Program-made: the position numbers and the translations under genes
Shown here: piece after piece, positions 6,464-24,700 of the stretch
How positions within the stretch are numbered: the first letter of the stretch is position 1
Layout: the number at the start of each line of letters is the position of its first letter
Assembly: GCA_934757865.1 (NCBI GenBank)
Contig: CAKVLS010000003.1
Location: 67,180-131,179, forward strand
Direction of reading: 5' to 3'
Origin: an uncultured Clostridia bacterium
GTDB taxonomy: Bacteria > Bacillota > Clostridia > Christensenellales > UBA1242
Length of the DNA: 64,000 nucleotides
The notes under the pieces: model-generated
What the model was told of the DNA's origin: nothing
Seen by the model: the letters and a program-made list of their open reading frames with translations, nothing else
Databases searched by the model: none

Positions 6464-6571
6464 GAAGTTTTTGGTCCTTTATAAATATTTACATTACAAA
6501 TATACCAAAAAACTAATAAAAAACCAAACAAAATGGTTGAAAACTTAATTTTAGTTTTTTATAATATAGAT

Positions 6572-7135
6572 ATGAAAAAAATATTATTACATAGTTGTTG
6601 TGGCCCATGTAGCACAACCGCCATAACTAGGCTGTCAAAAGACTACGATGTGACAGTATATTATTATAATCCTAATATATACCCAAATGATGAATTTATC
6701 AAAAGACAAGAAACTCAAAAGCAGTTTTTGAGAGAGTATAACCCACATATAGAACTTATAGAAGGCGAGTGGGAAAACGACCTATACGAAACAAATATCA
6801 AAGGCCTCGAAAAATGCAAAGAGGGCGGAGAAAGATGCTCTAAGTGTTTTTATATAAGACTTTATAAGACGGCTCTTCTTGCCAAAAAGCTCGGCTATGA
6901 TATGTTTGCTACGACTTTGACCGTTAGCCCTCACAAGAATAGCAAAGTCATCAACGCTATAGGCGAGACTATCTCTCAAGAGGTGGGCATTGAATATTTG
7001 CCAAGCGACTTCAAAAAGCAAGATGGATACCTAGAGAGTATCAAACTTTCAAAAGAGTATGGACTATATAGACAGAACTATTGTGGCTGTAAGTATTCTA
7101 TGTGGTGGCTAGAAGGAAATCAAGACAATAAGTAA
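6572..7135 (+). CDS. queH: epoxyqueuosine reductase QueH (DUF208)
   Basis: N-terminal LHSCCGPCS and C-terminal YCGCKYS cysteine motifs are characteristic of QueH. The start was set at MKKILLHSCC. Confidence 0.85.
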   Translation: MKKILLHSCCGPCSTTAITRLSKDYDVTVYYYNPNIYPNDEFIKRQETQKQFLREYNPHIELIEGEWENDLYETNIKGLEKCKEGGERCSKCFYIRLYKTALLAKKLGYDMFATTLTVSPHKNSKVINAIGETISQEVGIEYLPSDFKKQDGYLESIKLSKEYGLYRQNYCGCKYSMWWLEGNQDNK

Positions 7136-10336: not shown

Positions 10337-12760
10337 ATGAAAAAGAAAACAATTTCTAGCATTGCATTATCAATAGCAGCAGCTGCTGGTGCATTTGGTT
10401 TTGCAGGCTGCGGTAACAATGGTGGAGATCCACAACACTACAACATTATCTTTACTAACTCTACCAACCCACCAACATTGTCAGCACTACTTGCCATCAA
10501 GAGTGATGACCCAACTTATGCCTACGTTCAAAGAGGCAATACATACTATGGTATAGAAGATACTAAGAACTTTACTAATATCGGTTTTAATATCGACAAG
10601 CAAACTAACCCAGTAACTCAAGCTGAGGTTGCTAAAGTATCTGATGCTGTTAAACAAATAGCAAGAAAGAAGAAAAACTCAACTTTCACTATCTATGTAA
10701 CAGATTACAACGCATATGGCGCATTTGCAGCTGCTTATCAAGCAGGTCTTGACGATGACGACTTTAACGTTGTTATGGTAGAAGATGGTACTGGCTCTTA
10801 TAATCATTCAAATATTTCTTATGTAGCTGGTAAAACAACTGAGACTTCAGATGCTGCATTTGAAGCAACTATCCAAAGTGCAAAAGACAATGTTGCAGCA
10901 CTAAAAAAGAACCCTAATGCTCTAGGTACTACAGTATCTATGCAAGATTATGATGCATGGGCAGGTCTTGCTACTCTAAACAATGCATCTTTCCATACAG
11001 TAGCAATCCAAACATACAAAACACAATTTGAGACTGCTGGTCTTACAGACACATTATTCTATAAAGCAATCAATAACGAATCATCTACAGGTTATAACCT
11101 TAAGATGACAGAAGGTACTTCTGCAGTATTATACGAAGGATTGACCGCTGCTCAAAAGAGCGAATATCTAAAACTTATCGGTGGTGACAGAGTAGTTGCT
11201 ACACTAAGAAGAACACAAGATATTAAGGGCAACCCAGTTTCATCTAAAAAATTCGTAATCGTAGGTTCTCGTGCTAAGAGTAATACAATGTCAATGATGC
11301 CTGATATCACATCAGCAAGCGAGCTTATTGCTTATGACGATATTGCAACAAGCGGTAGCGATGCTCTAAAAGAAGTAGTAAGCGTTGTATTTACTAACAA
11401 AGATGACTATAATCAAGTTCTAACTATTCTTAACGACGAGAAGAGCGCCTTCACAGATGCTCAAAAAGTTGCTGCATTTAACCTATTTGCAGAAAATAAA
11501 TTTATGTTCCAAATCATAGCTAACTACTATGGTAATGATAGAGACCTTATCTTCAAAGGTCACCCATCAGAAGTTGTAACAGATAAAGCACAATGGAAAA
11601 CAAACCACTATCCATGTGGCACTGATGGAAACTTTGTAGACGCTATCTACAATCTAGTAGATAACTTCTTCAAAAACGATAGCCTAGGTTCAAGAATCGG
11701 CGTAGCTATCGGTGGTTGCGATATGTCTAACTATGCATTCTTTGGCGACCTAGATTATTCTATCGGTGGTATGTCATCATCTACATATGCAAGTTATAAC
11801 AAAAAGACTCCAGTTGACTTAATAATGTATAGTGGTGCTGGCACTTCATACAATGGTGCAGCTGCTAGATACCTAGAAGGTACTCTAAAAGATACTGACG
11901 GCGAGGTAACAACATACCTAAACACTGGTTCTATGTATCAATTACTAGGAAAAGAAGAAAAACTACAAGCTTGGCTTGTAAAAACTTTTGGCGTTTCTGC
12001 AGAGAACGCAGCTAACTATGGCGTAAACAAACAAGGTTTCGTAGCTAAGAGAAGCGTTGAAGAAGGCGTAACAAAGATCACTAACATTAGCAGAAATGTT
12101 GTTGTAAACTATGCTGACGGAACAACTGATAGTGCAACCAAAGCTTATGCTAATGGTGATGTATTAACACTTCCTACACCAACAAGAGAAGGATATACTT
12201 TCATGGGTTGGTACAATGGAACTGCTAAACAACCTTCTGTAGTTGTATTTAATACAATCCAAGAAACAGAATTGACAATCACTGCAAAATGGGCAAAGAA
12301 TTATGATGTTACATTCAAGGCATCAAAAGACGGCGATGTAATCACTACAAAAACTGTTCCAGAGGGCGCAGACCTTGCTGAACTTTCTAAAGATCTTAAG
12401 AATCCAGCCGCTGTTGAGGGCAAAACTTATAGACTAGTATGGCACAATGCAGCAGATGATGCAGTTGTAACAACTATGCCATCAAGCGATGTTACTCTAT
12501 ATGCAGAGTGGGTTGAGACTGTAACTGTAAAATATAGCCTAAAGAAAGGCGGCACAGAAGCTAGAGTTGTAGTTGATGCTAACAAAACTTGGAAAGATGT
12601 TGTTAATGCTATTAACGCAATCAAAGGTATCAAAAATCCAGATGGTACAGAAACTGTAGTAACTGGCTTGAAATTTGCTGAGAATGATAGTGCTGTTACT
12701 CTAGAAGCAACTGTAGACGCAACAAAAGTTGTATACGCAGTTTGGACTTCTGCTGAATAA
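10337..12760 (+). CDS. surface lipoprotein: GT80 (PmST1-type) sialyltransferase-like domain plus C-terminal Listeria-Bacteroides (Flg_new) repeats
   Basis: Signal peptide with lipobox FAGC (Cys25). The E149-D150-G151, FKGH409P410 and GGMS480S481S blocks parallel the DDG, KGHP and GGVASS motifs of PmST1. C-terminal LPTPTREGYTFMGWYNG-type repeats. Confidence 0.6.
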   Translation: MKKKTISSIALSIAAAAGAFGFAGCGNNGGDPQHYNIIFTNSTNPPTLSALLAIKSDDPTYAYVQRGNTYYGIEDTKNFTNIGFNIDKQTNPVTQAEVAKVSDAVKQIARKKKNSTFTIYVTDYNAYGAFAAAYQAGLDDDDFNVVMVEDGTGSYNHSNISYVAGKTTETSDAAFEATIQSAKDNVAALKKNPNALGTTVSMQDYDAWAGLATLNNASFHTVAIQTYKTQFETAGLTDTLFYKAINNESSTGYNLKMTEGTSAVLYEGLTAAQKSEYLKLIGGDRVVATLRRTQDIKGNPVSSKKFVIVGSRAKSNTMSMMPDITSASELIAYDDIATSGSDALKEVVSVVFTNKDDYNQVLTILNDEKSAFTDAQKVAAFNLFAENKFMFQIIANYYGNDRDLIFKGHPSEVVTDKAQWKTNHYPCGTDGNFVDAIYNLVDNFFKNDSLGSRIGVAIGGCDMSNYAFFGDLDYSIGGMSSSTYASYNKKTPVDLIMYSGAGTSYNGAAARYLEGTLKDTDGEVTTYLNTGSMYQLLGKEEKLQAWLVKTFGVSAENAANYGVNKQGFVAKRSVEEGVTKITNISRNVVVNYADGTTDSATKAYANGDVLTLPTPTREGYTFMGWYNGTAKQPSVVVFNTIQETELTITAKWAKNYDVTFKASKDGDVITTKTVPEGADLAELSKDLKNPAAVEGKTYRLVWHNAADDAVVTTMPSSDVTLYAEWVETVTVKYSLKKGGTEARVVVDANKTWKDVVNAINAIKGIKNPDGTETVVTGLKFAENDSAVTLEATVDATKVVYAVWTSAE

Positions 12761-12779
12761 GAAATTGTTTTCAATACTA

Positions 12780-12808
12780 AAAAAGGGTTGGGAAACCAAC
12801 CTTTTTTA
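12780..12808 (+). terminator. intrinsic terminator
   Basis: GGTTGG-gaaa-CCAACC hairpin followed by a T-run. Confidence 0.7.
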
Positions 12809-12866
12809 GTATGAGAAAGCGTTTTTATATGTTATACTTGAAGGGAATTCAAAGGAAAAATTTTTT

Positions 12867-14087
12867 ATGAAGACTTTTTTTAGAAAAATAGGAAACTTTT
12901 TTTGCAGCATAGGTAAAGGCATCGCAAATGGTTTCAAATGGATGTTTAGTAATAAACTAGTAGTAATGCAAATTTTGAGAGAGGCGACAGTAACACTTGC
13001 ACCTATTGTATTGTTTGTAGCCTTTCCATTACACTATCTTTTGAAATATTTGGCAAAAGATAGTATGATAGCTTTGAAGATTGGGCTAGGGGGTTGCCTA
13101 CTTCTTGCTGTATACTTTATCTTGAGTGCGGTGTATTATTTGCTAAAAGCTCTTGACAACAAAAAATTAAAGCAAGTTGAACAAGAGATGAAAGAAAAGA
13201 AAGAAGAAGCTGCTCAAAAGTACGAAGAAGAAAAAGCCGAGAGAAAGAACAAAGCTTTAGAGATACAAGAAGATGCAAAAGTTGAAAAGGTGGAAGAAAA
13301 AGAACCTGAAAAACCTGTTGAACCAAAAGCTCCTAAGAACTTTTTCCAAAAAGTTTTTGGATTCTTGTCTTTTAACGAAAATACTATCAAGATAGTTACT
13401 TCTAGTATTTGCGGTGTTTTTGGACTTGTTTTGTTCTGCTTTATGTTCTGCGATATAGAATATTGGGATGTTTACTATTTCTATACACTTTTCTTGTGGT
13501 GCATGTTTGGATACAGTGTTGTAGAACTTATTTTGAGCCATAACAAAAAGACCGCAATTACAATGGCGATTGTCGATGTTGCACTTTTGGTACTTCTTAT
13601 CATAGTAACACCTAAGGCTCACTCAATGTATTTCGATTTGGCCGCTTACACCAACACTAACGAGTATGACATTTATATGCTTATTATTTCATTTATCTTT
13701 ATGCTGCCTCTAAGAGTAGGTATGGCTAATGGATATTTGGAAAAAACAAAAAGAACAAGAAATGTGGCTTTGGGACTTTTGTGCCTTGCTGCAGGTATAA
13801 TCATGTACTATACACCTATGGTTACTAAGATTTTGAATGACTCATACATCGGCGTGCCTGTAATTGAGAGATTATACAACCAAATGATTCCTTATAAAGC
13901 AATGGGTTTTGTGTTTATTGGCGTGTTAGTTATAACAACTATCAATATTTCTGCTAACCTTATTCACTATTTTAAGAAAAGAAACTTCCTTGGTATCTTT
14001 GACCTTGCATGTGGTGTGACTGGACTAGTTCTTGCATGCTACGCAATGAATGTTATGTCAAATTATCTAATACTATTTGGAAGATAA
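12867..14087 (+). CDS. membrane protein with Lys/Glu-rich coiled-coil linker, function unknown
   Basis: 406 aa. N-terminal TM helices, a charged segment (KKEEAAQKYEEEKAERKNK...), then at least 6 TM helices. Confidence 0.6.
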   Translation: MKTFFRKIGNFFCSIGKGIANGFKWMFSNKLVVMQILREATVTLAPIVLFVAFPLHYLLKYLAKDSMIALKIGLGGCLLLAVYFILSAVYYLLKALDNKKLKQVEQEMKEKKEEAAQKYEEEKAERKNKALEIQEDAKVEKVEEKEPEKPVEPKAPKNFFQKVFGFLSFNENTIKIVTSSICGVFGLVLFCFMFCDIEYWDVYYFYTLFLWCMFGYSVVELILSHNKKTAITMAIVDVALLVLLIIVTPKAHSMYFDLAAYTNTNEYDIYMLIISFIFMLPLRVGMANGYLEKTKRTRNVALGLLCLAAGIIMYYTPMVTKILNDSYIGVPVIERLYNQMIPYKAMGFVFIGVLVITTINISANLIHYFKKRNFLGIFDLACGVTGLVLACYAMNVMSNYLILFGR

Positions 14088-14104
14088 AATGAGTTAATAA
14101 TTTT

Positions 14105-14146
14105 CAGCTCCTTGAGATTTTCGGGGGCTGATTTTTATTTTTTTTA
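14105..14146 (+). terminator. intrinsic terminator
   Basis: CAGCTCC / GGGGCTG stem with one G-U pair, followed by a T-rich run. Confidence 0.55.
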
Positions 14147-14214
14147 GGATAATCTTTTTAAGATATTTTGAGCGGTAAAAATTATAGGGCAATTTTAGTT
14201 TTTTATAAAAAGTG

Positions 14215-14243
14215 TTGACAAGTAGATTCTATAGTCGTATAAT
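14215..14243 (+). promoter_or_regulatory. consensus sigma-70 promoter (TTGACA-17-TATAAT) of the aspS-gatCAB operon
   Basis: Both hexamers are perfect and the spacer is 17 nt. Confidence 0.7.
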
Positions 14244-14271
14244 GTGGGTATTAAAAGGACATAAATATTAA

Positions 14272-14319
14272 ATGATTCTAGTTAACGATAACGACAATAA
14301 TAACGATGACACAATTTAG
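14272..14319 (+). CDS. leader peptide MILVNDNDNNNDDTI (Asn/Asp-codon rich)
   Basis: The ATG is preceded by AAAGGA. Nine of 15 codons are Asn or Asp. It lies between the promoter and an intrinsic terminator upstream of aspS. Confidence 0.6.
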   Translation: MILVNDNDNNNDDTI

Positions 14320-14324
14320 TAAGG

Positions 14325-14390
14325 TTGGGTTTTTATTGCCGCGGGGTTAAATGAATTGATTTTATAACACTTTTGGTAAATAAAAACCAA
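14325..14390 (+). promoter_or_regulatory. putative antiterminator helix (14325-14337 pairs with 14379-14390)
   Basis: TTGGGTTTTTATT is complementary to AATAAAAACCAA (12 bp, one bulged G). This overlaps the loop and the start of the 3' arm of the attenuator terminator. Confidence 0.4.
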
Positions 14391-14403
14391 AAGTGTTTTT
14401 TTA
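14366..14403 (+). terminator. attenuator terminator in the aspS leader
   Basis: AACACTTTTGG / CCAAAAGTGTT forms an 11-bp stem with a 10-nt loop and a T7 run, ending about 33 nt before the aspS ATG. Confidence 0.7.
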
Positions 14404-14435
14404 ATGAAATTTTTAGAAAAAAAGAGGACAAAAAA

Positions 14436-15725
14436 ATGACTAGTATAGCACAATTACAACTAGGAAAAGTAAAGGTTAGCGGTTGGATAGAAAGAATCCG
14501 TGACCAAAAAAGTATGCAGTTTATCGTCATCAAAGACAGAAGCGGTAAAGTGCAAATAACAGTCGAAAAAGAAAAATTACCAGAAGTAGCTGCAATATTC
14601 AGCGGACTTACAACAGACTCATTTATCACGGTCGAAGGTGACCTTGTAGCTAATGAGTGGGTTAAAATGGGCGGAAGAGAAATTCTTCCTACAAGTGTAG
14701 TAGTTGAGAGCAAGGCAGAAGTTTCTCCAATAGATAGCGAAAGCTCTATCGACCAAAGACTAGACTATCGTTGGATAGACCTAAGAGATAGCAAAAAGCG
14801 TCTAATTTTTGAAGTTCAAACAGCTCTTATGAAAGGTATGAGAGACTACTGCTACGACAATGGCTTTATCGAAGTTCACTGCCCAACAATCAGCGGTAAC
14901 GAGAGTGAAAGCGGCGCAGGTGTATTTGAGGTTAAATATTTTGACCGCAAGGCATACCTTATCCAAAGCCCACAATTCTATAAACAAATGGCAATCGCTG
15001 GTGGCTTTGAAAAAGTATTTATCGGCACACCTATTTATAGAGCAGAGAACTCACACACAAAACAACACACTACTGAGTTTACTGGTTTTGACCTTGAGTT
15101 TGCTGGCGTAAACGATGTAGAAGATGTAATGAAAGTTGAAGAGGAACTAATTCACGCTGGTATCAAATTTGTAGCCGAAAAATACGGCGCTAGAGTAAAA
15201 GAAGAGCTTGGCGTAGATATAGTAGTCCCTAGCCTACCTTTCCCAAGAATCACTATGAAAGAGGCTTATAAGATACTAGCCGAAGAGTGCCATTATCCAC
15301 TAGAAGAGGGTGATGACCTTGATAGAGAAGCTGAAAGACTTCTTTGCGAATACATGATCAAAAAGACTGGTCACCAATTCTTCTTCGTCAAAGAGTACCC
15401 AGCAGGCGTTAGACCTTTCTACTCAATGAAAAAACCTGACGACCCAATGTATACTAAGACTTATGACCTATACTTTAAGGATGTCGAGATCACTAGCGGC
15501 GCTCAAAGAGAGCACAGAGCAGATATTCTAGAAGCACAAATTAGAGAAAAGGGTATCAACCCAGATACTATGAGAGAATCATATATTGATTTCTTCAAAT
15601 ATGGCTGCCCTCCACACGGTGGATTTGGTATGGGTGTAGATAGATTAACAATGCTACTACTTGACCTTCCAAACCTAAGAGAGGCTATGTTCATATTCCG
15701 TGGTCCAGATAGATTAAGACCATAA
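14436..15725 (+). CDS. aspS: aspartate--tRNA ligase, compact archaeal/eukaryal type (probably non-discriminating)
   Basis: 429 aa, class IIb. QSPQFYKQM and RAENSHTKQHTTEFTGFDLEF match the arch/euk AspRS blocks QSPQLYKQM and RAE(D/N)SNTHRH-TEFTGLD-E rather than AsnRS. Start at the ATG after AGAGGA. gatCAB follows directly downstream. Confidence 0.8.
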   Translation: MTSIAQLQLGKVKVSGWIERIRDQKSMQFIVIKDRSGKVQITVEKEKLPEVAAIFSGLTTDSFITVEGDLVANEWVKMGGREILPTSVVVESKAEVSPIDSESSIDQRLDYRWIDLRDSKKRLIFEVQTALMKGMRDYCYDNGFIEVHCPTISGNESESGAGVFEVKYFDRKAYLIQSPQFYKQMAIAGGFEKVFIGTPIYRAENSHTKQHTTEFTGFDLEFAGVNDVEDVMKVEEELIHAGIKFVAEKYGARVKEELGVDIVVPSLPFPRITMKEAYKILAEECHYPLEEGDDLDREAERLLCEYMIKKTGHQFFFVKEYPAGVRPFYSMKKPDDPMYTKTYDLYFKDVEITSGAQREHRADILEAQIREKGINPDTMRESYIDFFKYGCPPHGGFGMGVDRLTMLLLDLPNLREAMFIFRGPDRLRP

Positions 15726-15759
15726 AAAATTGCCACACGGCATAAAGGAGCGAAAAAAG

Positions 15760-16050
15760 ATGAGTAAACAATTAACAATCAAAGATGTAAAACATTTAGC
15801 GGACTTATCTGCACTAAATTTTAGTGAAGAAGAGCTTGAGGCGTTTTTGCCAGAGATAAATAATACACTTAATATGATAAATAAGATTGAAAACTTTGAG
15901 ACCGAAAAAGAGTATGTCTTTGATAATATCGTACCTGTCGAAAGTCTTAGAGAAGATGTTGTAGGCGAAAGCATGAGCCAAGAAAAAGCTCTTGCCAACG
16001 CCCCAAAACAAAGAAAAGGGTGCTTCAATGTGCCAAGGGTGGTAGAATAA
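15760..16050 (+). CDS. gatC: Asp/Glu-tRNA amidotransferase subunit C
   Basis: 96 aa, with the pattern IKDVKHLADLSALNFSEEELEAF...LREDV...NAP...F.VP.V. Confidence 0.9.
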   Translation: MSKQLTIKDVKHLADLSALNFSEEELEAFLPEINNTLNMINKIENFETEKEYVFDNIVPVESLREDVVGESMSQEKALANAPKQRKGCFNVPRVVE

Positions 16051-17471
16051 TGTTAAGTGTAATAGAAATTGTACAAGGTGTTAAGAGCGGAAAACTCAAA
16101 AGCCAAGAGCTCGTTAAACACTATTTTGAAAACATAGATAAATATAGTTATAAAAATGCAGTATTAGAAAAATTTGATGATGCGCTAGATAGAGCAAGAG
16201 AAATAGACCAAAAAGCCTCTCGTGGCGAAAAGCTAGGAAGACTTGCGGGCGTTCCTATACTAATCAAAGATAACATTATGTACGAGGGCAAAACTGTTTC
16301 TTGTGCGTCAAAATTTCTAGAAAACCATAAAGCCCAATACTCAGCTACTGCTGTACAAAAATTACTTGCAGAAGATGCTGTAATTATAGGTAGAGCTAAC
16401 ATGGACGAATTCGCCATGGGTAGCAGCTGCGAGAACTCTGCGTTTGGTCCATGCCTAAATGCTCTTGATGATAAAAAAGTTGCTGGCGGTAGCTCTGGTG
16501 GTAGTGCAGTGGCGGTAGCTCTTGACCTATGCGCAGCAGCACTTGGTAGCGATACTGGTGGCTCTATCCGTCAACCTGCATCACTAAACGGTGTAGTTGG
16601 TATAAAAGGTAGCTACGGCAGAGTATCAAGATACGGACTAGTCGCCTTTGCTAGTAGCCTAGACCAGATAGGACCTATAACAAGAAGTGTAGAAGATAGC
16701 GCACTACTTCTAGAAGTTATGTCAGGCGAAGACTCTCATGATATGACCTCAGGACACGAAAAAGTTGGAAAATACCTAGAAGACCTAAAACCTCAAATAA
16801 AGGGCAAAAAGGTCGGTATTATAAGACAAGTAGACGGACTTCTTGATGGCAGTAAGTACAAGGCAAAGTTTGAAAAGCTAGTTGCCTTCCTAAAAGCTCA
16901 AGGTACTGAGGTAAAAGTAGTAGATATTAAGGGTTACGAGATGTCACTACCTATCTACTATGTAATAGCTCCAGCAGAAGCAACCTCTAACCTTGGTAGA
17001 TTTGACGGAGTTAAATACACAAGAAGAAGTGAAAGTGCCAAGAACATAGGTGAAGTTTACGAACTAAGCCGTACAGAGGGCTTTGGCAAAGAAGTAAAGA
17101 GAAGAATAATGCTAGGCAACTTTGTGCTTAGTAGCGGCTATTATGATGCTTATTATGTAAAAGCAAAAAAGATTCAACAAGCATTGTCAAAAGAGTTTGA
17201 AAAAGCCTTTGAAGATGTAGATGTCATTGTTATGCCTACTACATTTGGAGAGGCTTTTGATATAGGCTCAAAACAAGACCCAACAGCTATGTACGCAGAG
17301 GATATGTTTACTATCATATCTAACTTAGTTGGCGTTCCTGCCATAAGCATACCATACAGCAAGGGTGAGAGTGGTCTTCCACTAGGCGTCCAAATAATTG
17401 GCAAAAAGTGGGACGAGCAACAAGTCTTTGATGTTGCAAGCTATATAGAAAAATTTTATAAGGAGGACTAA
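16050..17471 (+). CDS. gatA: Asp/Glu-tRNA amidotransferase subunit A
   Basis: Amidase signature GGSSGGSAVAVA...GSDTGGSIRQPA. The TAATG overlap indicates coupling with gatC. Confidence 0.95.
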   Translation: MLSVIEIVQGVKSGKLKSQELVKHYFENIDKYSYKNAVLEKFDDALDRAREIDQKASRGEKLGRLAGVPILIKDNIMYEGKTVSCASKFLENHKAQYSATAVQKLLAEDAVIIGRANMDEFAMGSSCENSAFGPCLNALDDKKVAGGSSGGSAVAVALDLCAAALGSDTGGSIRQPASLNGVVGIKGSYGRVSRYGLVAFASSLDQIGPITRSVEDSALLLEVMSGEDSHDMTSGHEKVGKYLEDLKPQIKGKKVGIIRQVDGLLDGSKYKAKFEKLVAFLKAQGTEVKVVDIKGYEMSLPIYYVIAPAEATSNLGRFDGVKYTRRSESAKNIGEVYELSRTEGFGKEVKRRIMLGNFVLSSGYYDAYYVKAKKIQQALSKEFEKAFEDVDVIVMPTTFGEAFDIGSKQDPTAMYAEDMFTIISNLVGVPAISIPYSKGESGLPLGVQIIGKKWDEQQVFDVASYIEKFYKED

Positions 17472-17474
17472 AAC

Positions 17475-18908
17475 ATGAAAGATTACGATGTGGTAATAGG
17501 TCTAGAAATTCACGCCGAACTAAAAACCAACACCAAAGTTTTTTGCAGCTGCAAAAACGCCTTTGGTTCGGAGCCTAACACTAATGTATGTCCAGTTTGT
17601 ATTGGTCTTCCAGGAACACTTCCTATCATTAACAAAAAAGCCGTTGAACTTGCTATCAAAGCAGGTCTTTGTATGGGGTGCGAAATCTCTCCGGTAGCTG
17701 TTTTTGAGAGAAAAAACTACTTTTATCCCGATCTATGTAAAGCTTACCAAATAAGCCAGTTACAAAAACCTATTTGTCTAGGCGGCGGTATAAAACTTGA
17801 TAGCGGCAAGTTTATTAGACTAAACCGTATCCATCTAGAAGAAGATGCTGGTAAACTTATCCATGTAAACTCAACTGTCGGCACACTTATCGACTACAAC
17901 CGTGGCGGAGTACCACTTATAGAGATAGTCACAGAGCCTGATATCACTTGTGCCGAAGAGGCTGTTGAGTTTCTTGCTAAGTTAAAAAGTAACCTTATCT
18001 TTGGAGGCATAGCAGATTGCCGTATGGAACAAGGTGGTATGAGATGCGATGTTAACTTGTCTGTTAAACCTAAGGGTAGTGACAAGCTAGGCACTCGTAC
18101 TGAGATGAAAAACTTAAACTCATTTAAGATGGTTCAAAGAGCAATTAAGTACGAAGCCAAGAGGCAAATAGAAGTCCTTGAAGAGGGCGGAACTATCAAA
18201 CAACAAACAAGAAAATGGGACGACAACCGTAACAAGAGCTTCACTATGAGAAGCAAAGAAGAGGCTCAAGATTACAGATACTTCCCAGACCCTGATATTC
18301 TATCGATTTCTATCAGTAGAGAGCTTGTAGACCATATTAAAGGCGAAATTCCACGCCTTGCGCCTGAGAGAAGAGCTTATTATATGGAGACTCTAGGCTT
18401 GCCGGAATATGATAGCAAAATATTAACTTCTGAGTACTATATAGCCGAGTATTTTGAGGCATGCCTTGCGGCTTTTGATAAGCCAAAAGTTGTGTCTAAC
18501 TGGGTTATGACCGAAGTTTTGCGTAAGCAAAAAGAGAGTTTGACTGAGGACCTGAACACCGTTATAAGTGTTAAGAACTTAGTTGATATAATGAAAATGG
18601 TCGAAGATAAAACTATCACCCGTAGTAACGGCAAAGAACTTTTTGAGCTAGTCGCTTTTAGTGGCAAAGACGCTCGCAAGACTGCCGAAGAAGAGGGTAT
18701 GATAGTTAAGTTTGATGAGGGCGCTTTGACCAAAACAATTGATGAAGTGTTTGAGCAAAATGCCAAAGCTGTGCCCGACTACAAAAAAGACCCAGAAAAA
18801 GTTACTAACTTCTTCATAGGTCAAACTATGCGTATGACCAAAGGCACTGCTAAGATAGAGTTTATTAAGCCAATTATTATAAAAAGACTTGAAGAACTAA
18901 ACAAGTAG
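17475..18908 (+). CDS. gatB: Asp/Glu-tRNA amidotransferase subunit B
   Basis: VIGLEIHAEL, CPVCIGLPGTLP, EEDAGK and a YqeY-like C-terminal tail. Confidence 0.95.
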   Translation: MKDYDVVIGLEIHAELKTNTKVFCSCKNAFGSEPNTNVCPVCIGLPGTLPIINKKAVELAIKAGLCMGCEISPVAVFERKNYFYPDLCKAYQISQLQKPICLGGGIKLDSGKFIRLNRIHLEEDAGKLIHVNSTVGTLIDYNRGGVPLIEIVTEPDITCAEEAVEFLAKLKSNLIFGGIADCRMEQGGMRCDVNLSVKPKGSDKLGTRTEMKNLNSFKMVQRAIKYEAKRQIEVLEEGGTIKQQTRKWDDNRNKSFTMRSKEEAQDYRYFPDPDILSISISRELVDHIKGEIPRLAPERRAYYMETLGLPEYDSKILTSEYYIAEYFEACLAAFDKPKVVSNWVMTEVLRKQKESLTEDLNTVISVKNLVDIMKMVEDKTITRSNGKELFELVAFSGKDARKTAEEEGMIVKFDEGALTKTIDEVFEQNAKAVPDYKKDPEKVTNFFIGQTMRMTKGTAKIEFIKPIIIKRLEELNK

Positions 18909-18961
18909 TCAAATATTTATAAAAATAAATAAAAAAACAAAAGTTATTATTGTCAAATAAA

Positions 18962-18998
18962 AAAGAGACTTGCGGGAAATCCGCAGCCTCTTTTTTTA
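18962..18998 (+). terminator. intrinsic terminator after gatB
   Basis: Imperfect GAGACTTGCGG / CCGCAGCCTC stem followed by a T7 run. Confidence 0.55.
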
Positions 18999-19091
18999 TT
19001 GCTAAGTAATGTATGTTATCAACTTTTGTTGGCTTATAATCAAAATAATGAATAATATGTTTATAAATATAAATCAATTTAGTATTTTTAA

Positions 19092-19120
19092 TTGCAAAAA
19101 GCTTTTTCTTTGGCTACAAT
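19092..19120 (+). promoter_or_regulatory. sigma-70-like promoter (TTGCAA-17-TACAAT)
   Basis: Hexamers with a 17-nt spacer, located 18 nt upstream of the XRE gene start. Confidence 0.55.
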
Positions 19121-19137
19121 GTATTTAGGAGAAAATT

Positions 19138-20133
19138 ATGAGCGAATTAAATTATTTTTCAAGCAACCTAAAAGTTTTGGCTGATAAATATAGCCAAAAG
19201 AAAATTGCCGAAGATACAGGGGTATCTCCAGCAAGTATCAACAACTACCTTAACAAAAGTAGTGACCCATCAAGCAGTTTTTTGCTTAAACTAAAAAAGG
19301 CATATGATATCAACATAGACAACTTTTTGACTGGTCCATACGAAGCCCCAGAAAAAAAAGAACTATCCAAAATAGATATTAGATTTTTGGGCGACTATGC
19401 GCTATATTTTTATGATACTAATGTATACAAAGGCAGAGTTCATAGATCAACTAATATTTTGAGATATGGCGTACTTTCTGTCGTTGGCGAAGGCAAAGAT
19501 AAAGACGGACTTAGAGTTTTTGCTAAGTTCTTTGACACAAGAAGACAAATGGAAGACACTTTCAAATATCTAAGTGGAGCTAGTGAGAAGAAAAAGTTAG
19601 AGTATTACGCTGAGCAAGATGTTAAGTATACTGGCGAGCTAGAAACTAGCGCCGCACAGATTTTTGTGCTTCTAAAAAATACTGCCGAAGAGGATCACTG
19701 CTTAATTATTCTTAATAATCCACCTAGCAATAATAAATATATCGGTGGACTAGGCACAGTTAACTCTGTCGCTCGTGGCAGAGAAAAAATGCCTTGCGTT
19801 CAATATATCATCGTTAGTGATAAACTATTTAGAATACCAGACGGCGAACTATACCAAAGATTATCTCTTGGTATTAGCGAGGTCAATGTGCAGAACGAAA
19901 CTAATCAACTAATTACTTTGTTTAAGAACTTGTATTTAGAAAGTGACAGCAACCCTAACGGACTAAATGACTTCCAGAAGCAAAGAATTATAAGCGACAG
20001 CTTAGAGAACATGCTAGAAGAGATGATTGACGCCAACATGTTTAGATTTGCCAAAGTATCGAACAACGAAGATGATAGATTCTTTAGAATGATAAGAGAC
20101 GATTCTTACGGAGAGGACGATGATAGATTATAA
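19138..20133 (+). CDS. XRE-family HTH protein with uncharacterised C-terminal domain
   Basis: N-terminal KKIAEDTGVSPASINNYLNKSSDPSSSFLLKLKKAYDINIDNFL is a Cro/C1-type HTH. The remaining roughly 260 aa were not recognised. Confidence 0.7.
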   Translation: MSELNYFSSNLKVLADKYSQKKIAEDTGVSPASINNYLNKSSDPSSSFLLKLKKAYDINIDNFLTGPYEAPEKKELSKIDIRFLGDYALYFYDTNVYKGRVHRSTNILRYGVLSVVGEGKDKDGLRVFAKFFDTRRQMEDTFKYLSGASEKKKLEYYAEQDVKYTGELETSAAQIFVLLKNTAEEDHCLIILNNPPSNNKYIGGLGTVNSVARGREKMPCVQYIIVSDKLFRIPDGELYQRLSLGISEVNVQNETNQLITLFKNLYLESDSNPNGLNDFQKQRIISDSLENMLEEMIDANMFRFAKVSNNEDDRFFRMIRDDSYGEDDDRL

Positions 20134-21577
20134 AAAAGAATTTGACGAAATAGTCGAAGACCTTACAAAGAACAACTCGACTGGTATACTTAATGTTGTT
20201 AATGCCTTCAACCTTGCCGAAAAACTTCATGACGGACAAATGCGTAAAGATGGCGAAAAGTACATTACTCACCCAGTTGCTGTTGCTAAGATTTTGGCGG
20301 AACTTGATTTTGATAGTGATATGATAGCTGCGGGACTTTTGCATGATGTAGTAGAAGACTGTGGCTATACTGTAGCTGAAATAAGAGAAAACTTCAACGA
20401 CAAGGTAGCTAGCATAGTTGACGCTGTTACTGCAATAGAAGAAAATGAGGCATCTATCAAAGATATCTTTTATGATGAAAATTTCAAAAAAGACAGTTTA
20501 GATGACCAAACTTTTAATAAGCTAATATCTTTTGGAAAACAAAACAAACTTGCCTTTTATATTAAGTTTGCCGATAGACTTCACAACCTTAGAACAATTA
20601 ATATTTTTAGCGAGTACAAGCAGGTAGAAAAGGTAAAGGAAACCCAAAAGTGGATTATTCCGCTAGCATACCTTCTAAAATCAAAATACTTCTATGACAA
20701 CCTAAAAAATGAGTGTTTTAGAATTCTAAACAAAGACTTATATGCAGAACTTAACGAAAGATACGAGATGTATTATGAGTCGTGCAAAACTAGAGTCGAA
20801 GAGCTTTGCGAAGATTTGAGCTATAAGGTAAGCAATTACTTTTCAAAGAAGCAATACCCTTTTAACAAAGTCCTAACTGAAAGAGATACCTTATATAGCC
20901 TTTGCGAAAGAATGAAAAAGACCCTAGAAATAAATTCTGTTAAACATATTAAGAGAAACTCATTTAATCGTATGCCAACTATCAAGATTTTCTTGTTATT
21001 TAATGGTAAGACAGAAAATTTATTCAACCTAGCCTACGAAATGTTTGAAAAAAATGTACTTGATGACGAGCTAAAAATAATAGGCTACGAAAAGAACGAT
21101 AGATACAAACTTCATTATCTTATAGTAGAAGACCATAGCGGTATCAAGTATAGACTTACAGCTATGACAACAGAGCAGTACCTTCTTGTCCGCAATGGAA
21201 CAATAGAGAGCTCTGAGATTGACCTTATTGACGAGGGCACTATTGGAGATATCGCAAGGAGATATATTATGGTGCGTACAAGGTCCGAAGAAGAGATTAG
21301 ACTTCCAGAAAACAGCACTGTTTTAGACTTCGCTTTTAAGGTTCACAATGACCTAGGTTTGTCTTGTAAGTATGCATTGATAAATAACTCACCAACACCA
21401 AAAGCACCTTATACAAGGCTTGCAGAGGGCGATAAAGTAGTTGTTTATAATGAAACTGACAATAAGACTGGACTTTTGAAACCTGTTGCCGAAATTAGAT
21501 GGTTTGCGTATGTTAATACCGAGCATGCCAAAAAAGTTCTTATCAAATACTTTGAGAAAAAGTACTCTGAGAAGTAG
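20120..21577 (+). CDS. SpoT/Rel-homolog: HD (p)ppGpp hydrolase domain, degenerate synthetase-like domain, TGS domain; no C-terminal ACT region
   Basis: THPVAVAKIL...LLHDVVEDC...DRLHNLRT give an intact HD domain. The synthetase positions are diverged (ERD..YSLCERMKK, YKLHYL, YRLTAMT in place of EIQIRT). TGS-like LPENSTVLDFAFKVHNDLG...GDKVVV. It overlaps the upstream gene by 14 nt. Confidence 0.7.
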   Translation: MIDYKKEFDEIVEDLTKNNSTGILNVVNAFNLAEKLHDGQMRKDGEKYITHPVAVAKILAELDFDSDMIAAGLLHDVVEDCGYTVAEIRENFNDKVASIVDAVTAIEENEASIKDIFYDENFKKDSLDDQTFNKLISFGKQNKLAFYIKFADRLHNLRTINIFSEYKQVEKVKETQKWIIPLAYLLKSKYFYDNLKNECFRILNKDLYAELNERYEMYYESCKTRVEELCEDLSYKVSNYFSKKQYPFNKVLTERDTLYSLCERMKKTLEINSVKHIKRNSFNRMPTIKIFLLFNGKTENLFNLAYEMFEKNVLDDELKIIGYEKNDRYKLHYLIVEDHSGIKYRLTAMTTEQYLLVRNGTIESSEIDLIDEGTIGDIARRYIMVRTRSEEEIRLPENSTVLDFAFKVHNDLGLSCKYALINNSPTPKAPYTRLAEGDKVVVYNETDNKTGLLKPVAEIRWFAYVNTEHAKKVLIKYFEKKYSEK

Positions 21578-21667
21578 TTATTTTTGGCAAGTAAATAAAG
21601 ATAAATATAATTGTAATAAATATATATAAATATGATAAATTATAAAGACCAATATGAAATTAGGTAC

Positions 21668-21706
21668 AAAAAAAAGACTGATTATTTAATCAGTCTTTTT
21701 TTTATT
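21668..21706. terminator. bidirectional intrinsic terminator
   Basis: AAGACTGATTA / TAATCAGTCTT stem between an A8 run and a T8 run, at convergent gene ends. Confidence 0.75.
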
Positions 21707-24700
21707 TTAATAATTACCAGATTTCCATTCAGCATAGAAGGTAGTATTTTGGGTTATTGTTGTTACAATCTTGGTATAACTGTCAGTATTGTAGTTTACA
21801 CATTTTGTTGTGTTCCATGATACTACTTTGAAATCATAAGTTAAACCGTAGCGATATTTTGCGGTTGATCTTACTTCTTCACTTTCTCTTCTTGATGCAT
21901 CTAGTATAGATACAACTTTTGTTAGAGTAGTGCCATCTAATACAGAACCGCTAAGTACATATTTATCAGCAACACTTGTTGGAGCACTTGCTTGTTTTCC
22001 ATCATTTATCCAATGATTTGGTCTAGCCCAGTTGGTAACAAATGATAGTTTTACATAAGAAAGTGTTTGATATTCCCATGTAGCATCAAATGTCATATTT
22101 TGGCTAGGCATAACGCTAGGTGTAGATACTGTAATATCGCTAGATAGTTTGTATCCGCCGAAAATATATGCTTCTATGTAGTTAGGAATGCTGTCGTTAT
22201 AAACGGTATTTTCATAACTATTTTGTGTAGGAACATCATAGCTTGCGCCTTGATACTCAGTTATAACTTTTGTAGCCTTGTCGCCAAAGCTTGAAGTAAA
22301 TGTTAATGTATATTTGTTTCTCACATAAACATTTAGGTCATTAGAAGGCATTGTTGTTGGTAAAGTCTCGTACATATTAACGAAATCTTTATCCTCATAC
22401 CATAGTGTGTCATCTTTGTGACTAACTAGTGACAAGATATCGATAGGTGTACCATCTACATAGTAGCCTAGGTACAATTCTTTATCTCCGTCATAGATTG
22501 CTAGCTTTCTTTGATATGTTCTAGATACTTCGGTGTATTTTGCATATACTGTGATATCTTCGTTACCCATTACTTCTAGGGCGAATTTGTCACCATATAC
22601 AACCTCACCGTCAACTATCTCTCCATAGTACCAGCCGTCAAATGTATATACAATAGTAACGCCAAGTTCTTCGTTATGAACGACAACCTCATCATCTCTT
22701 GTAGGGATGTTAGCTGAGATATCATAACTATTAAATGTACTATAAGAAGTAGTCTTATTAAGAATATTGTCTACGAAATTGATTGTATGTTTTGTGTAGC
22801 TTTCTTTTAGAGTCCACTTAGCATAGAAGGTAATATCGCTATCTTCTTGCATCAAGAAGTCCCCAGTAAGAGGTGTATCTGTTAGGTTTGCATTTCTGCA
22901 CCAGCCTAAGAACTCATAAATGTCTAAGCTGCTCTCTGTCTCAATTTCTTTAGTTGGAGTAGGAAGAGTAATGCTTCTACCTTTTTGAATCATCTTGTTT
23001 TGAACTTCGCTTCCGCCGTTCTCAACAAATTTTATAATCAAGCTGCCATCGTCCCAACGACCAAATGCAGTAGCATCAAGTTTGCTTATCTCATTAGCTA
23101 CGCCTTGAGTGTTTGAGATATTAGCGAAGTTTACATTAGCGTTAGCGTAGATATATACGCCAGATACTGCTTCTAGTGTTATGTTGTTAACACTTAGAGC
23201 ACTTATTGTATCGCCTGTTGTAGAAACTGTTACGCCAGTCTTGTTGTCGCTAGAATAGCCTTTCATCATATCCATAAGCGATAGTTGCCTTAGGTCTATA
23301 CCTATGTTGTATGTTCTGTTATTGCCGCTAGCAACATATACATAATCTTTCAAAATGTTCTCTGCTTTTCTAGGCCCGTCAATGTACTTGATATCTGCAG
23401 AAAGTATAGATGCTAGAGTGTTCTTAGATATGTTAGTTATATCTGATATGATGTTAACAAGGTTTGCGTTAATTTCTGAAAGTTTGTATTTAGATTTTAG
23501 TTCGTTGCCAGTTCTACTAATGTATAGTATTGGCTCGCCCTCTAATCTGTCTGTGATATATATTGTTGTATATATCTTCTTAGTTCCGTTAAGTACAGCA
23601 ATCTTAGGAATATCAAGATATGCTTTTGCCTCAAATGGAATACCGTTTTTCTTAGTTGTGTCAAGGTCAAGGTTTAGAGTGAAAGGAATAGCTTTGTCAA
23701 TAGGTATACCGATTATTTCGGCTCTAACTTTGAACTCGCCACTTAGGTATGCTTTGTATACTTTGTTGTCAGTAGTAGTCTTTTGCGCGGTCTTGTCAAA
23801 AGCGCTAACAAACTTGCCGATAGAAGTCATATCCATGTAACTTTCTTGTGGATTAACCTCGAAGCTATCTGTTAGGTCTACTGTCATGTCAAAGTCAAGT
23901 AGCATATCGTTAGGAAGTTTTAAGTTAGAGATAACCATAGTCAAACGATTATTTTCGTCTAGTTTGACCTTAATCATAATCTCTTCCTCAAAGCTTGGAA
24001 CTAGAGAAGAGATATCGATACCAATATCAAGACTGCTGTCGCTGTTTAGTCTCAAAGTCTTAAGTAGAGGTATGTAGTCTTGTAGGTTATCAAATAGTTT
24101 AGACATATCAGGAGCATTGAATAGTAAGTTGCCCATAGTGTCGAACTTAATCATATCAAATACTTCTAGTATCTTACCGCTAAAGCTCAAGTCACTTAGA
24201 TAGTTAGTTACGATACTCTTTAGGGTGCTAATAAGTTCGCTGTTACTTTGTTTACTAAATTTTGCTCTTAGTCCGTTGTAATCAATGTAGATAAAGTTGC
24301 TATCAAAGTGAGCTGTAACTCTGTGGTCATAGCCTGCTAGATACTCGTTGTATAGTGAGCCGTAACCTGTTACATTTAGGTAACCTGTGAATAAGTTTTT
24401 ATCCTTTGTAGTGTCAAATCTCATATTGTCGTAGGTTAGAGAAATTTTGTCTTCTTTTCCGTCAACAGTAACTTTTGTTCCGTCACTGTTTAGCTTACAC
24501 AATGTTGCCTTGCCGCTCAAAATATATTGGTCGGTTGTCTCATCTTTTGAAGCATTGATTAGTCTCTCTACTTCGTCAAAGTAATTAGCAAATGTTCTAT
24601 ATGTTGCATAATCGTTATCGTTAGGAAGAGTAACTATTGCATCGCTGCCAAAGCTAAAGTTGTCTACACATGCCTTGTCTCCATAAGTGATGCGAGATAA

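Follow-up and report, generated by a model that had tools for sequence, protein, structure and literature searches.

The stretch analysed here (64,000 nucleotides of contig CAKVLS010000003.1 from an uncultured Clostridia bacterium, called the window in the following) carries an operon for an aspartyl-tRNA synthetase (AspRS, gene aspS) and the amidotransferase GatCAB, preceded by a leader of about 150 nt. Most of this leader is filled by a very short open reading frame (ORF), in which nine of the 15 codons specify Asn or Asp, and by an intrinsic terminator. The elements found between the upstream gene (ORF 12867-14087) and the operon are the following.

14109..14135, + strand: terminator-like hairpin and T-run at the 3' end of the upstream gene (consensus scan; stem 14109-14127, T-rich tail)
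14215..14243, + strand: sigma-70-type promoter TTGACA-17-TATAAT (-35 box 14215-14220, -10 box 14238-14243)
14254..14259, + strand: Shine-Dalgarno-like AAAGGA of the leader ORF, 12 nt 5' of the ATG, a rather long spacing
14272..14319, + strand: leader ORF MILVNDNDNNNDDTI*, 15 codons and TAG (sequence reading)
14284..14310, + strand: regulatory run of nine unbroken codons (five Asn, four Asp), the proposed ribosome stall site, which overlaps region 1
14325..14341, + strand: region 2 (TTGGGTTTTTATTGCCG), 5' strand of the predicted antiterminator (folding)
14366..14402, + strand: intrinsic terminator (attenuator) with a 12-bp stem (14366-14377 / 14386-14397), an 8-nt loop AAATAAAA and a U-tract to 14402
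14374..14390, + strand: region 3, 3' strand of the predicted antiterminator, made of TGGT (top of the terminator 5' arm), the whole loop AAATAAAA and ACCAA (start of the 3' arm)

A sequence-only reading of this DNA had pointed to a TTGACA-17-TATAAT promoter and to a 15-codon mini-ORF with five Asn and four Asp codons, and both are present as described. The promoter matches the consensus at 12 of 12 positions and is the only such match within 12000-22000 in a consensus scan; transcription would start at about 14250. Since the upstream gene possesses its own terminator at 14109-14135, the leader would constitute a separate transcription unit. The leader ORF reads ATG ATT CTA GTT AAC GAT AAC GAC AAT AAT AAC GAT GAC ACA ATT TAG. 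The terminator (-14.4 kcal/mol for the hairpin) also stands where it had been placed, its T-run ending at 14402, 33 nt before the aspS ATG at 14436, although the scan gives a stem of 12 pairs rather than 11.

The operon itself comprises the following features.

14423-14427, + strand: ribosome-binding site GAGGA of aspS
14436..15725, + strand: aspS, archaeal-type non-discriminating aspartate--tRNA(Asn) ligase (NF003483, 2e-135, 452 bits for a cutoff of 353; TIGR00458, 377.7 for a cutoff of 368.4)
15730..16050, + strand: gatC (TIGR00135, 69.8 bits for a cutoff of 47.1, residues 16-106)
16020..17471, + strand: gatA (TIGR00132, 557 bits)
17475..18908, + strand: gatB (NF004012, 594 bits)
18970..18996, + strand: terminator-like hairpin 3' of gatB (consensus scan)

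The true start of gatC probably lies some codons 3' of 15730, and the hairpin at 18970-18996 is the probable end of the operon. The equivalog scores above cutoff and the presence of gatC, gatA and gatB directly downstream are in agreement with the earlier proposal that the target is an archaeal-type non-discriminating (ND) AspRS together with GatCAB.

The leader is most likely a ribosome-dependent leader-peptide transcription attenuator of this ND-aspS-gatCAB operon, which would sense Asn-tRNA(Asn) and exert a negative feedback. Such an attenuator, built on two mutually exclusive helices, was the central claim of the sequence-only reading; it is supported by the conservation of the module, the restriction of its codons, its geometry, the helix energies, a swap test between leaders and the Asn-specific T-boxes found on orthologous operons. 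What was established here by computation comprises the presence of these elements and their conservation, the limited set of codons in the run, the distances between elements, the stability of one helix relative to the other and the co-variation of paired strands.

Concerning the codon run, a 9-codon stretch consisting of nine Asn or Asp codons occurs in only one of the 844 small ORFs of the window (ATG-started, 8-40 codons, all six frames), namely the leader ORF, and the runner-up reaches six. Asn and Asp triplets represent 6.8% of all triplets of the window, whose G+C content is 35%. The comparison was extended to 177 aspS loci (0.99 Mb, both strands), 160 of them obtained via one genome and one metagenome scan and 17 via exact-protein look-ups. 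In these loci, short ORFs spanning no more than 55 codons from stop to stop and containing at least six consecutive Asn/Asp codons, including at least four Asn, are located exclusively on the aspS strand and just 5' of aspS. The sole other Asn/Asp run lies inside a 287-aa ORF (L122), and a looser run criterion adds a single unrelated ORF (L140).

The search for a conserved mini-ORF rich in Asn/Asp codons and followed by a terminator 5' of aspS in relatives, which had been proposed as a check, led to the identification of the same module at 13 other distinct aspS-gatCAB loci, whose AspRS are 48-89% identical to that of the window. Its components are a -35 box of the TTGACA type, a short ORF with a run of Asn codons, a segment that includes GGGTT, and a terminator, the apex of which is complementary to this segment; aspS-gatC-gatA follow. 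The leader peptides of these loci, with the identity of their AspRS to the one of the window, are as follows.

L001, AspRS 89%, leader peptide MFTLVNNNDNNNDNTI
L161, AspRS 83%, leader peptide MFMTTLRNNNDNNNDDTI
L003, AspRS 82%, leader peptide MITLINNNDNNNDNTI
L163, AspRS 81%, leader peptide MITLVNNNDNNNNNAI
L002, AspRS 80%, leader peptide MIFEINNDNNNLFNTL
L174, AspRS 79%, leader peptide MFLKDNNNNDNNF
L165, AspRS 77%, leader peptide MIFKTNNNNNNSL
L167, AspRS 76%, leader peptide MMHVNNNDNNDF
L170, AspRS 76%, leader peptide MAFIRINNNNNNSLNT
L081, AspRS 75%, leader peptide MRFSLNNDNNNAILNT
L089, AspRS 54%, leader peptide MIRLINNNNNNDNLNTF
L131, AspRS 48%, leader peptide MLMLINNNNNNNLNTLFIMGSFCIVD
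L005, AspRS 64%, leader peptide MTTLFCVINNNNNNNTATRLV

All 14 leaders, that of the window included, possess an intrinsic terminator and an in-frame ATG located 3-8 codons 5' of the run, and the -35 box is TTGACA in all of them except L005 (TTGACT). The GGGTT and the T-rich stretch are conserved in 13 leaders. In 12 of the 14, a Shine-Dalgarno-like AAGGA(C) or GAGGA precedes the ORF by 4-17 nt, while the other two (L002 and L174) look leaderless. In these two loci (L002:2840-2880 and L174:340-375), the TATAAT box ends 6 nt 5' of the leader ATG and no Shine-Dalgarno sequence is transcribed, so that synthesis of the leader peptide would require a leaderless mRNA, an arrangement that is unusual for attenuators. 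The genes located 5' of the module vary from one locus to another (P-type ATPase, semialdehyde dehydrogenase, sulfatase, VanZ), which indicates that the module belongs to aspS and not to the neighbouring gene. The leader peptides of three relatives (21-26 aa) match no NCBIfam or Pfam model.

The codon restriction is strict: the 106 run codons of the 14 leaders all have the form [A/G]A[T/C] (87 Asn, 19 Asp). The changes observed among leaders are limited to AAT/AAC or Asn/Asp exchanges, and Lys, Glu, Ser, Thr, Ile, Tyr or His codons are never found. Each leader carries five to eight Asn codons and zero to four Asp codons (zero to three in the 13 relatives), the window being the richest in Asp.

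The leader of L005 departs from the main family, since it has seven consecutive Asn codons and helices that differ from those of the other leaders. A protein database search revealed no close relatives of this type of leader, the nearest AspRS being 66-67% identical; this second design therefore rests on one genome. Along the 349 bases that were compared, the poly-Asn leader and aspS are identical on two contigs of the metagenome-assembled genome JAFTYD01 (L005 and L006), due to duplication or to assembly redundancy.

The second line of evidence concerns the pairing. In multiple alignments of the leaders made with MAFFT, the ORFs and the terminator arms are out of register owing to variable loops and spacers; per-sequence folding, shuffles and a swap test were used instead. 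Folding predicts an antiterminator helix in which G14328-U14337 pairs with A14379-C14388 (10 bp) and, beyond a bulged A14378, G14338-G14341 pairs with U14374-U14377. The complementarity between 14325-14337 and 14379-14390 that had been noticed earlier is thus real, but it is only the core of a longer helix that also sequesters the top of the terminator 5' arm. The antiterminator would therefore capture not only the terminator loop but also the bases on either side of it at the apex.

The two states were compared by folding the segment that extends from region 2 to the terminator either as antiterminator or as terminator. With region 2 available, the antiterminator equals or exceeds the terminator in stability in 9 of the 14 leaders, and the difference stays within 3 kcal/mol in the remaining ones. 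In the window, where a comparison of the two helices had been suggested, the antiterminator reaches -17.7 kcal/mol and the terminator -12.6 kcal/mol; the values are -22.4 and -12.9 kcal/mol for L001, and -25.4 and -9.0 kcal/mol for L005. The duplex between regions 2 and 3 is more stable than those obtained with 500 shuffled versions of region 2 (p<=0.01 in the 11 leaders tested, all 11 of them), and that of the window beats all 500. In the swap test, native pairs of regions 2 and 3 have a mean energy of -14.8 kcal/mol versus -11.5 kcal/mol for chimeric pairs, and none of 20000 permutations reaches the native mean. Even for the divergent L170, L089, L131 and L005, the native partner is ranked first or second.

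Several matched changes illustrate this co-variation. In L170, a T>G change in region 2 is matched by an A>C change in the loop (GGGTTGTT, loop AACACCCC), and in L089 and L131, GGGTTC is paired with GAACC. Elsewhere, TTGCC is associated with GGTAA in one subgroup and TTGTCA with TGGCA in the other. The pairing with region 2 would explain why the terminator loops are unusually long (7-10 nt in most leaders), A-rich and conserved.

A third pairing, absent from the sequence-only reading, is possible between regions 1 and 2 (14291-14311 with 14323-14342 in the window, -9.5 kcal/mol). It would complete the classical scheme of 1:2, 2:3 and 3:4 helices. This 1:2 helix beats shuffles (p<=0.01) in L002, L165, L170, L081 and L005, and its swap test is weak (p=0.009). 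It should be added that the start of region 2 can be read as (M)GFYC... for 7-11 codons from TTG or ATG (MGFYCRGVK at 14325-14354 in the window, MGFYCHIL in L165 and L081, MGSCCCD... in L089). This frame has no Shine-Dalgarno sequence and its position relative to the leader frame is not constant across relatives; it is probably a by-product of the complementarity to Asn codons.

The position of the ORF relative to region 2 fits the proposed role of the ribosome. It had been claimed that a ribosome at the UAG would occlude the 5' strand of the antiterminator and that a ribosome stalled earlier would leave it free. The spacing in the window is consistent with both: counted from the first stop-codon base, the GGG of region 2 begins after 10 nt, and counted from the last Asn/Asp codon, after 19 nt. 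In the main family (13 leaders), the last codon of the run lies 18-26 nt 5' of the GGG, so that region 2 would remain accessible next to a ribosome stalled in the run, if such a ribosome is assumed to protect about 12 nt past the codon in its A site. In 9 of these 13 leaders, the GGG follows the stop codon at a distance of 4-10 nt. In L131, the ORF passes through region 2, which means that a ribosome finishing the peptide would cover it.

From these elements we infer translation of the ORF, ribosome stalling, pausing or synchronisation of the polymerase, and the regulatory outcome. Transcription would begin from the promoter near 14250 and a ribosome would start on the 15-codon leader. When charged Asn-tRNA(Asn) is ample (and here probably Asp-tRNA(Asp) too), this ribosome would reach the TAG at 14317, where its footprint would cover the GGG of region 2; after its release, region 2 may re-pair with the Asn codons. 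With region 2 masked, regions 3 and 4 would be free to form the 12-bp terminator, and the polymerase would stop in the U-tract around 14400. When charged tRNA is scarce, the ribosome would stall in the 9-codon run, cover region 1 and end at least 6 nt short of region 2. Region 2 (14328-14341) could then pair with the emerging apex of the terminator (14374-14388), which would block termination and allow read-through into aspS-gatCAB. The additional ND-AspRS and GatCAB would restore Asn-tRNA(Asn) and thereby close the negative feedback loop.

Several observations weigh against this mechanism or limit its reach. The shuffle and permutation tests ignore the shared ancestry of the leaders, and all the leader sequences come from uncultured metagenome-assembled genomes. 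The 1:2 helix of the window is no better than shuffles (p=0.57), so that termination in the unstalled state would rest on occlusion by the ribosome or on kinetics. The minimum free energy (MFE) fold of the full unmasked leader contains the terminator in all leaders except L005, and MFE folds in which a stalled ribosome is masked still contain it in most leaders and stall positions, including all three positions tested in the window. As equilibrium folds favour the terminator, read-through would depend on co-transcriptional kinetics. L005 follows the expected logic under ribosome masks, as it gives the antiterminator when the ribosome is stalled early or mid-run, and the terminator when it stands at the stop codon. 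Three leaders (L165, L167 and L174) have their stop codon 14-17 nt 5' of the GGG, where a terminating ribosome would miss region 2. Comparison with relatives points to premature stops (TAA in place of AAC or TTA) or to the loss of 1 nt from a T-run; these three leaders are exceptions to a simple occlusion model, for which assembly errors may be one explanation. The spacing between the Shine-Dalgarno sequence and the ATG is long (12 nt in the window, about 16 nt in L001). The open frame is also in part a forced signal, because the third frame of an AAY repeat reads TAA and the +1 frame Ile/Thr. Lastly, runaway transcription, in which the polymerase outpaces the ribosomes, has been described in Firmicutes such as B. 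subtilis (PMC13323073). In principle, this would be unfavourable for a ribosome-dependent attenuation unless the polymerase pauses.

The question most evenly balanced is whether the leader of the window responds to Asn alone. Judged from its codons, Asn is the conserved signal of the family, and a serious competing view, to be placed a little below an even chance, is that the same attenuator is a pure sensor of Asn-tRNA(Asn), the Asp codons arising by neutral drift (one A-to-G change each) or being kept for pairing. Asp codons vary from zero to four per leader and are missing in 4 of the 14 (L165, L170, L131 and L005), which counts against Asp sensing, while five to eight Asn codons are found in every leader. 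The T-boxes of orthologous aspS-gatCAB operons carry an AAC specifier (see below). Furthermore, the most conserved GAC lies within the helix formed by regions 1 and 2 (CGACAA or AUGACAA facing UUGCCG or UUGUCAU), another point against Asp sensing; it may therefore be kept for pairing rather than for sensing. On the other hand, four of the nine run codons of the window are Asp, and stalling would be mechanically unavoidable if Asp-tRNA(Asp) became limiting. The regulated AspRS also makes Asp-tRNA(Asp), and Asp sensing would be sensible if this enzyme is the only AspRS of the cell; tblastn detects no second class IIb synthetase in the 64 kb window, a result that is uninformative for the whole genome. 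In addition, substitutions within the runs go to Asp alone and never to other residues one mutation away. The sensing of Asp-tRNA(Asp) by the leader of the window thus stands at about even chances. The dual Asn/Asp sensor put forward by the sequence-only reading is plausible for the window, with its four Asp codons, but is not a trait of the family.

A far less probable explanation, although not a negligible one, is that the mini-ORF is untranslated and that the AAY repeat acts as an RNA element, either a TRAP-like binding site for a protein or a fixed anti-antiterminator, the terminator being constitutive or controlled otherwise. AAY triplet repeats could in principle form a protein-binding array, and the forced frame, the suboptimal Shine-Dalgarno spacing of the window and L001, and the runaway transcription of Firmicutes mentioned above would all agree with it. 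It does not account for the in-frame ATG of all 14 leaders, preceded by a Shine-Dalgarno-like motif in 12 and by a -10 box placed as for leaderless translation in two, nor for the stop codon found next to region 2 in most of them. The strict [A/G]A[T/C] pattern reaches well past the paired part of region 1, and the identity of the codons matches both the product of the operon and the AAC specifier of the T-boxes that were replaced.

A degenerate or unusual T-box, or another known riboswitch, is very improbable. Operons of aminoacyl-tRNA synthetases in Bacillota are normally controlled by T-boxes, and this includes many relatives of the aspS-gatCAB operon studied here. However, no Rfam family reaches the gathering score, and the T-box model (RF00230) gives no match at E<=10 within 13900-14700 of the window. 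Six chance-level matches to Rfam were obtained at E<=10, none of them to a His, Leu, Thr, Trp or other leader-peptide family. The hallmarks of T-boxes, i.e., Stem I, the specifier loop and the conserved AGGGTGGNACCGCG of the antiterminator bulge, were thus not detected in the window by the covariance search. Moreover, the ORF and the terminator take up most of a leader that is only about 150 nt long. A scan of leader-peptide loci that tolerated up to two mismatches did not find the T-box motif AGGTGGCACCGCG in any of them; the window itself was tested by Rfam only. The absence of a T-box claimed earlier, for which a search with T-box and other leader models had been proposed, is therefore upheld, all the more so as the same search finds T-boxes in relatives. 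As for a chance ORF in an AT-rich spacer followed by the terminator of the upstream gene, a window of 35% G+C may well yield many short ORFs and hairpins in its A/T-rich spacers, but the upstream gene has its own terminator 5' of the promoter, the leader ORF is a unique outlier among the 844, and the occurrence of the module in 13 other lineages with differing upstream genes effectively refutes it.

The distribution of T-boxes among relatives sheds light on the history of the leader-peptide attenuator. Matches to RF00230 with scores of 115-150 bits are found 5' of aspS in L004, L008, L015, L016, L082, L169, L171 and L173, and weaker ones in L009, L011 and L014. By a crude test, 38 of the 158 loci with enough upstream sequence have the AGGTGGCACCGCG motif, 14 have a leader peptide and 106 have neither. 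In the RF00230 alignments, the specifier is AAC (Asn) in L004, L082, L169 and L171, all of which are aspS-gatCAB operons; the T-boxes on such orthologous operons score 115-146 bits. In L173 (1241-1460), where no gatCAB is found downstream of aspS, the specifier is GAC (Asp). The specifier of the T-boxes therefore tracks the content of the operon, AAC being associated with gatCAB and GAC with aspS alone. An Asn-specific T-box has likewise been reported on the ND-aspS-gatCAB operon of Clostridium acetobutylicum, and it is said to read a second codon too (Saad et al. 2012, J Biol Chem 287:20382, as related in PMC4206432 and PMC4574755).

On a neighbour-joining tree of AspRS with bootstrap, the main leader-peptide loci form two neighbouring groups beside a T-box clade of 100% support. 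L005 is an isolated lineage, and L089 and L131 are far off by AspRS identity. L175 (1-100; AspRS P0034), on a contig too truncated to include the specifier, shows the 3' domain of a T-box (TAGGTGGCACCGCG and a terminator) before aspS-gatC. Its AspRS shares 80% identity with that of the leader-peptide locus L081, and the tree pairs the two with 89% bootstrap, which points to a recent exchange of one regulator for the other. The distribution of T-boxes and leader peptides on orthologous operons indicates that these devices replaced each other more than once.

Another locus of the leader-peptide clade, L172, has an aspS devoid of both gatCAB and leader ORF. There (1400-1500), the TTGACA-17-TATAAT promoter is directly followed by a hairpin of 9 bp, whose loop is A-rich and 8 nt long, and by a U8 tract that closely precedes the ribosome-binding site; this hairpin may be the remnant of an attenuator. 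A near-threshold T-box (91.5 bits) lies 3' of the same aspS, before a Maf-like gene (L172:2854-3067).

As regards the surroundings of the operon, no Rfam family (tRNA, rRNA, riboswitch or T-box) was detected at the gathering score in the whole 64 kb. The window carries an epoxyqueuosine reductase gene, queH (6533-7135, + strand; PF02677, 1e-65). The tRNAs modified with queuosine are precisely those reading NAY codons (Asn, Asp, His, Tyr), i.e., the class of codons found in the leader. Directly 3' of the operon (19138-21577, + strand) are encoded a 331-aa helix-turn-helix protein of the XRE type and, overlapping it, a 485-aa protein in which HD_4 and TGS domains are recognised. With 193 bits, this second protein stays well below the RelA/SpoT cutoff of 499, and no synthetase domain was detected in it; it may be a stand-alone (p)ppGpp hydrolase-like protein adjoining an operon that would be regulated by amino acid starvation. 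Other features of the window are two very large ORFs (52982-62935, 3317 aa, + strand; 21707-27100, 1797 aa, - strand) and an ORF with a Listeria-Bacteroides repeat (10337-12760).

Leader-peptide attenuators are classically represented by trpL, hisL, pheL, leuL, thrL and ilvL of E. coli and, for a synthetase, by pheM-pheST. Like those of trpL, hisL and pheM, the leader of aspS combines a promoter-proximal mini-ORF carrying codons for the amino acid of the controlled pathway with alternative 2:3 and 3:4 helices, possibly also a 1:2 helix, and an intrinsic terminator before the first gene. In both cases, the stalled ribosome would free region 2 and the ribosome at the stop codon would cover it. 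It differs from them by the sensing of Asn (and perhaps Asp) codons, by its target, which is an indirect tRNA-charging pathway (ND-AspRS and amidotransferase), and by its host, an uncultured lineage of gut Clostridia. In addition, no sequence or covariance-model likeness to any Rfam family was detected. Furthermore, its antiterminator would take the apex of the terminator (both sides and loop) and not the 5' arm alone.

The closest functional counterpart is the Asn T-box of C. acetobutylicum and of the relatives described above, which shares the type of operon, the signal (charging of tRNA(Asn)) and the output (terminator versus antiterminator). However, a T-box RNA binds uncharged tRNA directly, without translation, whereas the aspS leader would be read by a translating ribosome and lacks Stem I, the specifier loop and the T-box sequence.

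Such a replacement has a precedent, as in bacilli hisZ and paralogues of hisS have been predicted to carry His leader peptides in place of T-boxes (Naville & Gautheret 2010, PMC2965389). As in the present case, a "regular" leader peptide takes the place of a T-box in Firmicutes on a gene of a synthetase family. Those leaders nevertheless use His codons, belong to another gene family and another lineage, and have no sequence relationship with the aspS leader. In Staphylococcus aureus, a leucine-rich attenuator peptide has been reported for the ilv-leu operon (PMC5794164). This system is also a case of leader-peptide transcription attenuation in Bacillota, but what it senses are codons of branched-chain amino acids, and its targets are biosynthetic enzymes rather than functions of tRNA charging or amidation. 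A similar ilv leader reportedly exists in Listeria.

In the literature searched, the coverage of which is incomplete, no description was found of an Asn-codon leader peptide, of an "aspS motif" or of a leader-peptide control of aspS-gatCAB, in line with the lack of prior description noted by the sequence-only reading. The balance tips slightly in favour of the leader of the window being the founding member of an undescribed family of attenuators that would read Asn codons and, in some members including the window, Asp codons. This family would provide the first leader-peptide control of an operon for tRNA-dependent amino acid synthesis. It would comprise at least two structural designs, and exchanges between it and the Asn T-box would have taken place on more than one occasion, including between lineages that share 80% identity in AspRS.

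To our knowledge, the leader-peptide attenuators described so far concern few amino acids (Trp, His, Phe, Leu, Thr, Ile/Val) and mostly Proteobacteria and Actinobacteria. An Asn (and possibly Asp) leader acting on the indirect Asn-tRNA pathway would extend this list to an additional amino acid and to a further class of targets. It would also flag a conserved, presumably translated mini-ORF missed by gene callers in metagenome-assembled genomes and offer a compact Asn-responsive switch for engineering. If the proposed mechanism is true, the window would hold a natural single-ORF sensor for two linked aminoacyl-tRNAs. Closely related gut Clostridia, which carry either an Asn T-box or an Asn leader on orthologous operons, would allow a direct comparison of two kinds of tRNA-charging sensors. 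The finding bears as well on the question of whether ribosomes keep pace with RNA polymerase in Bacillota: if true, it would mean that, in the Bacillota studied here, ribosome-coupled attenuation works well enough to displace the T-box.

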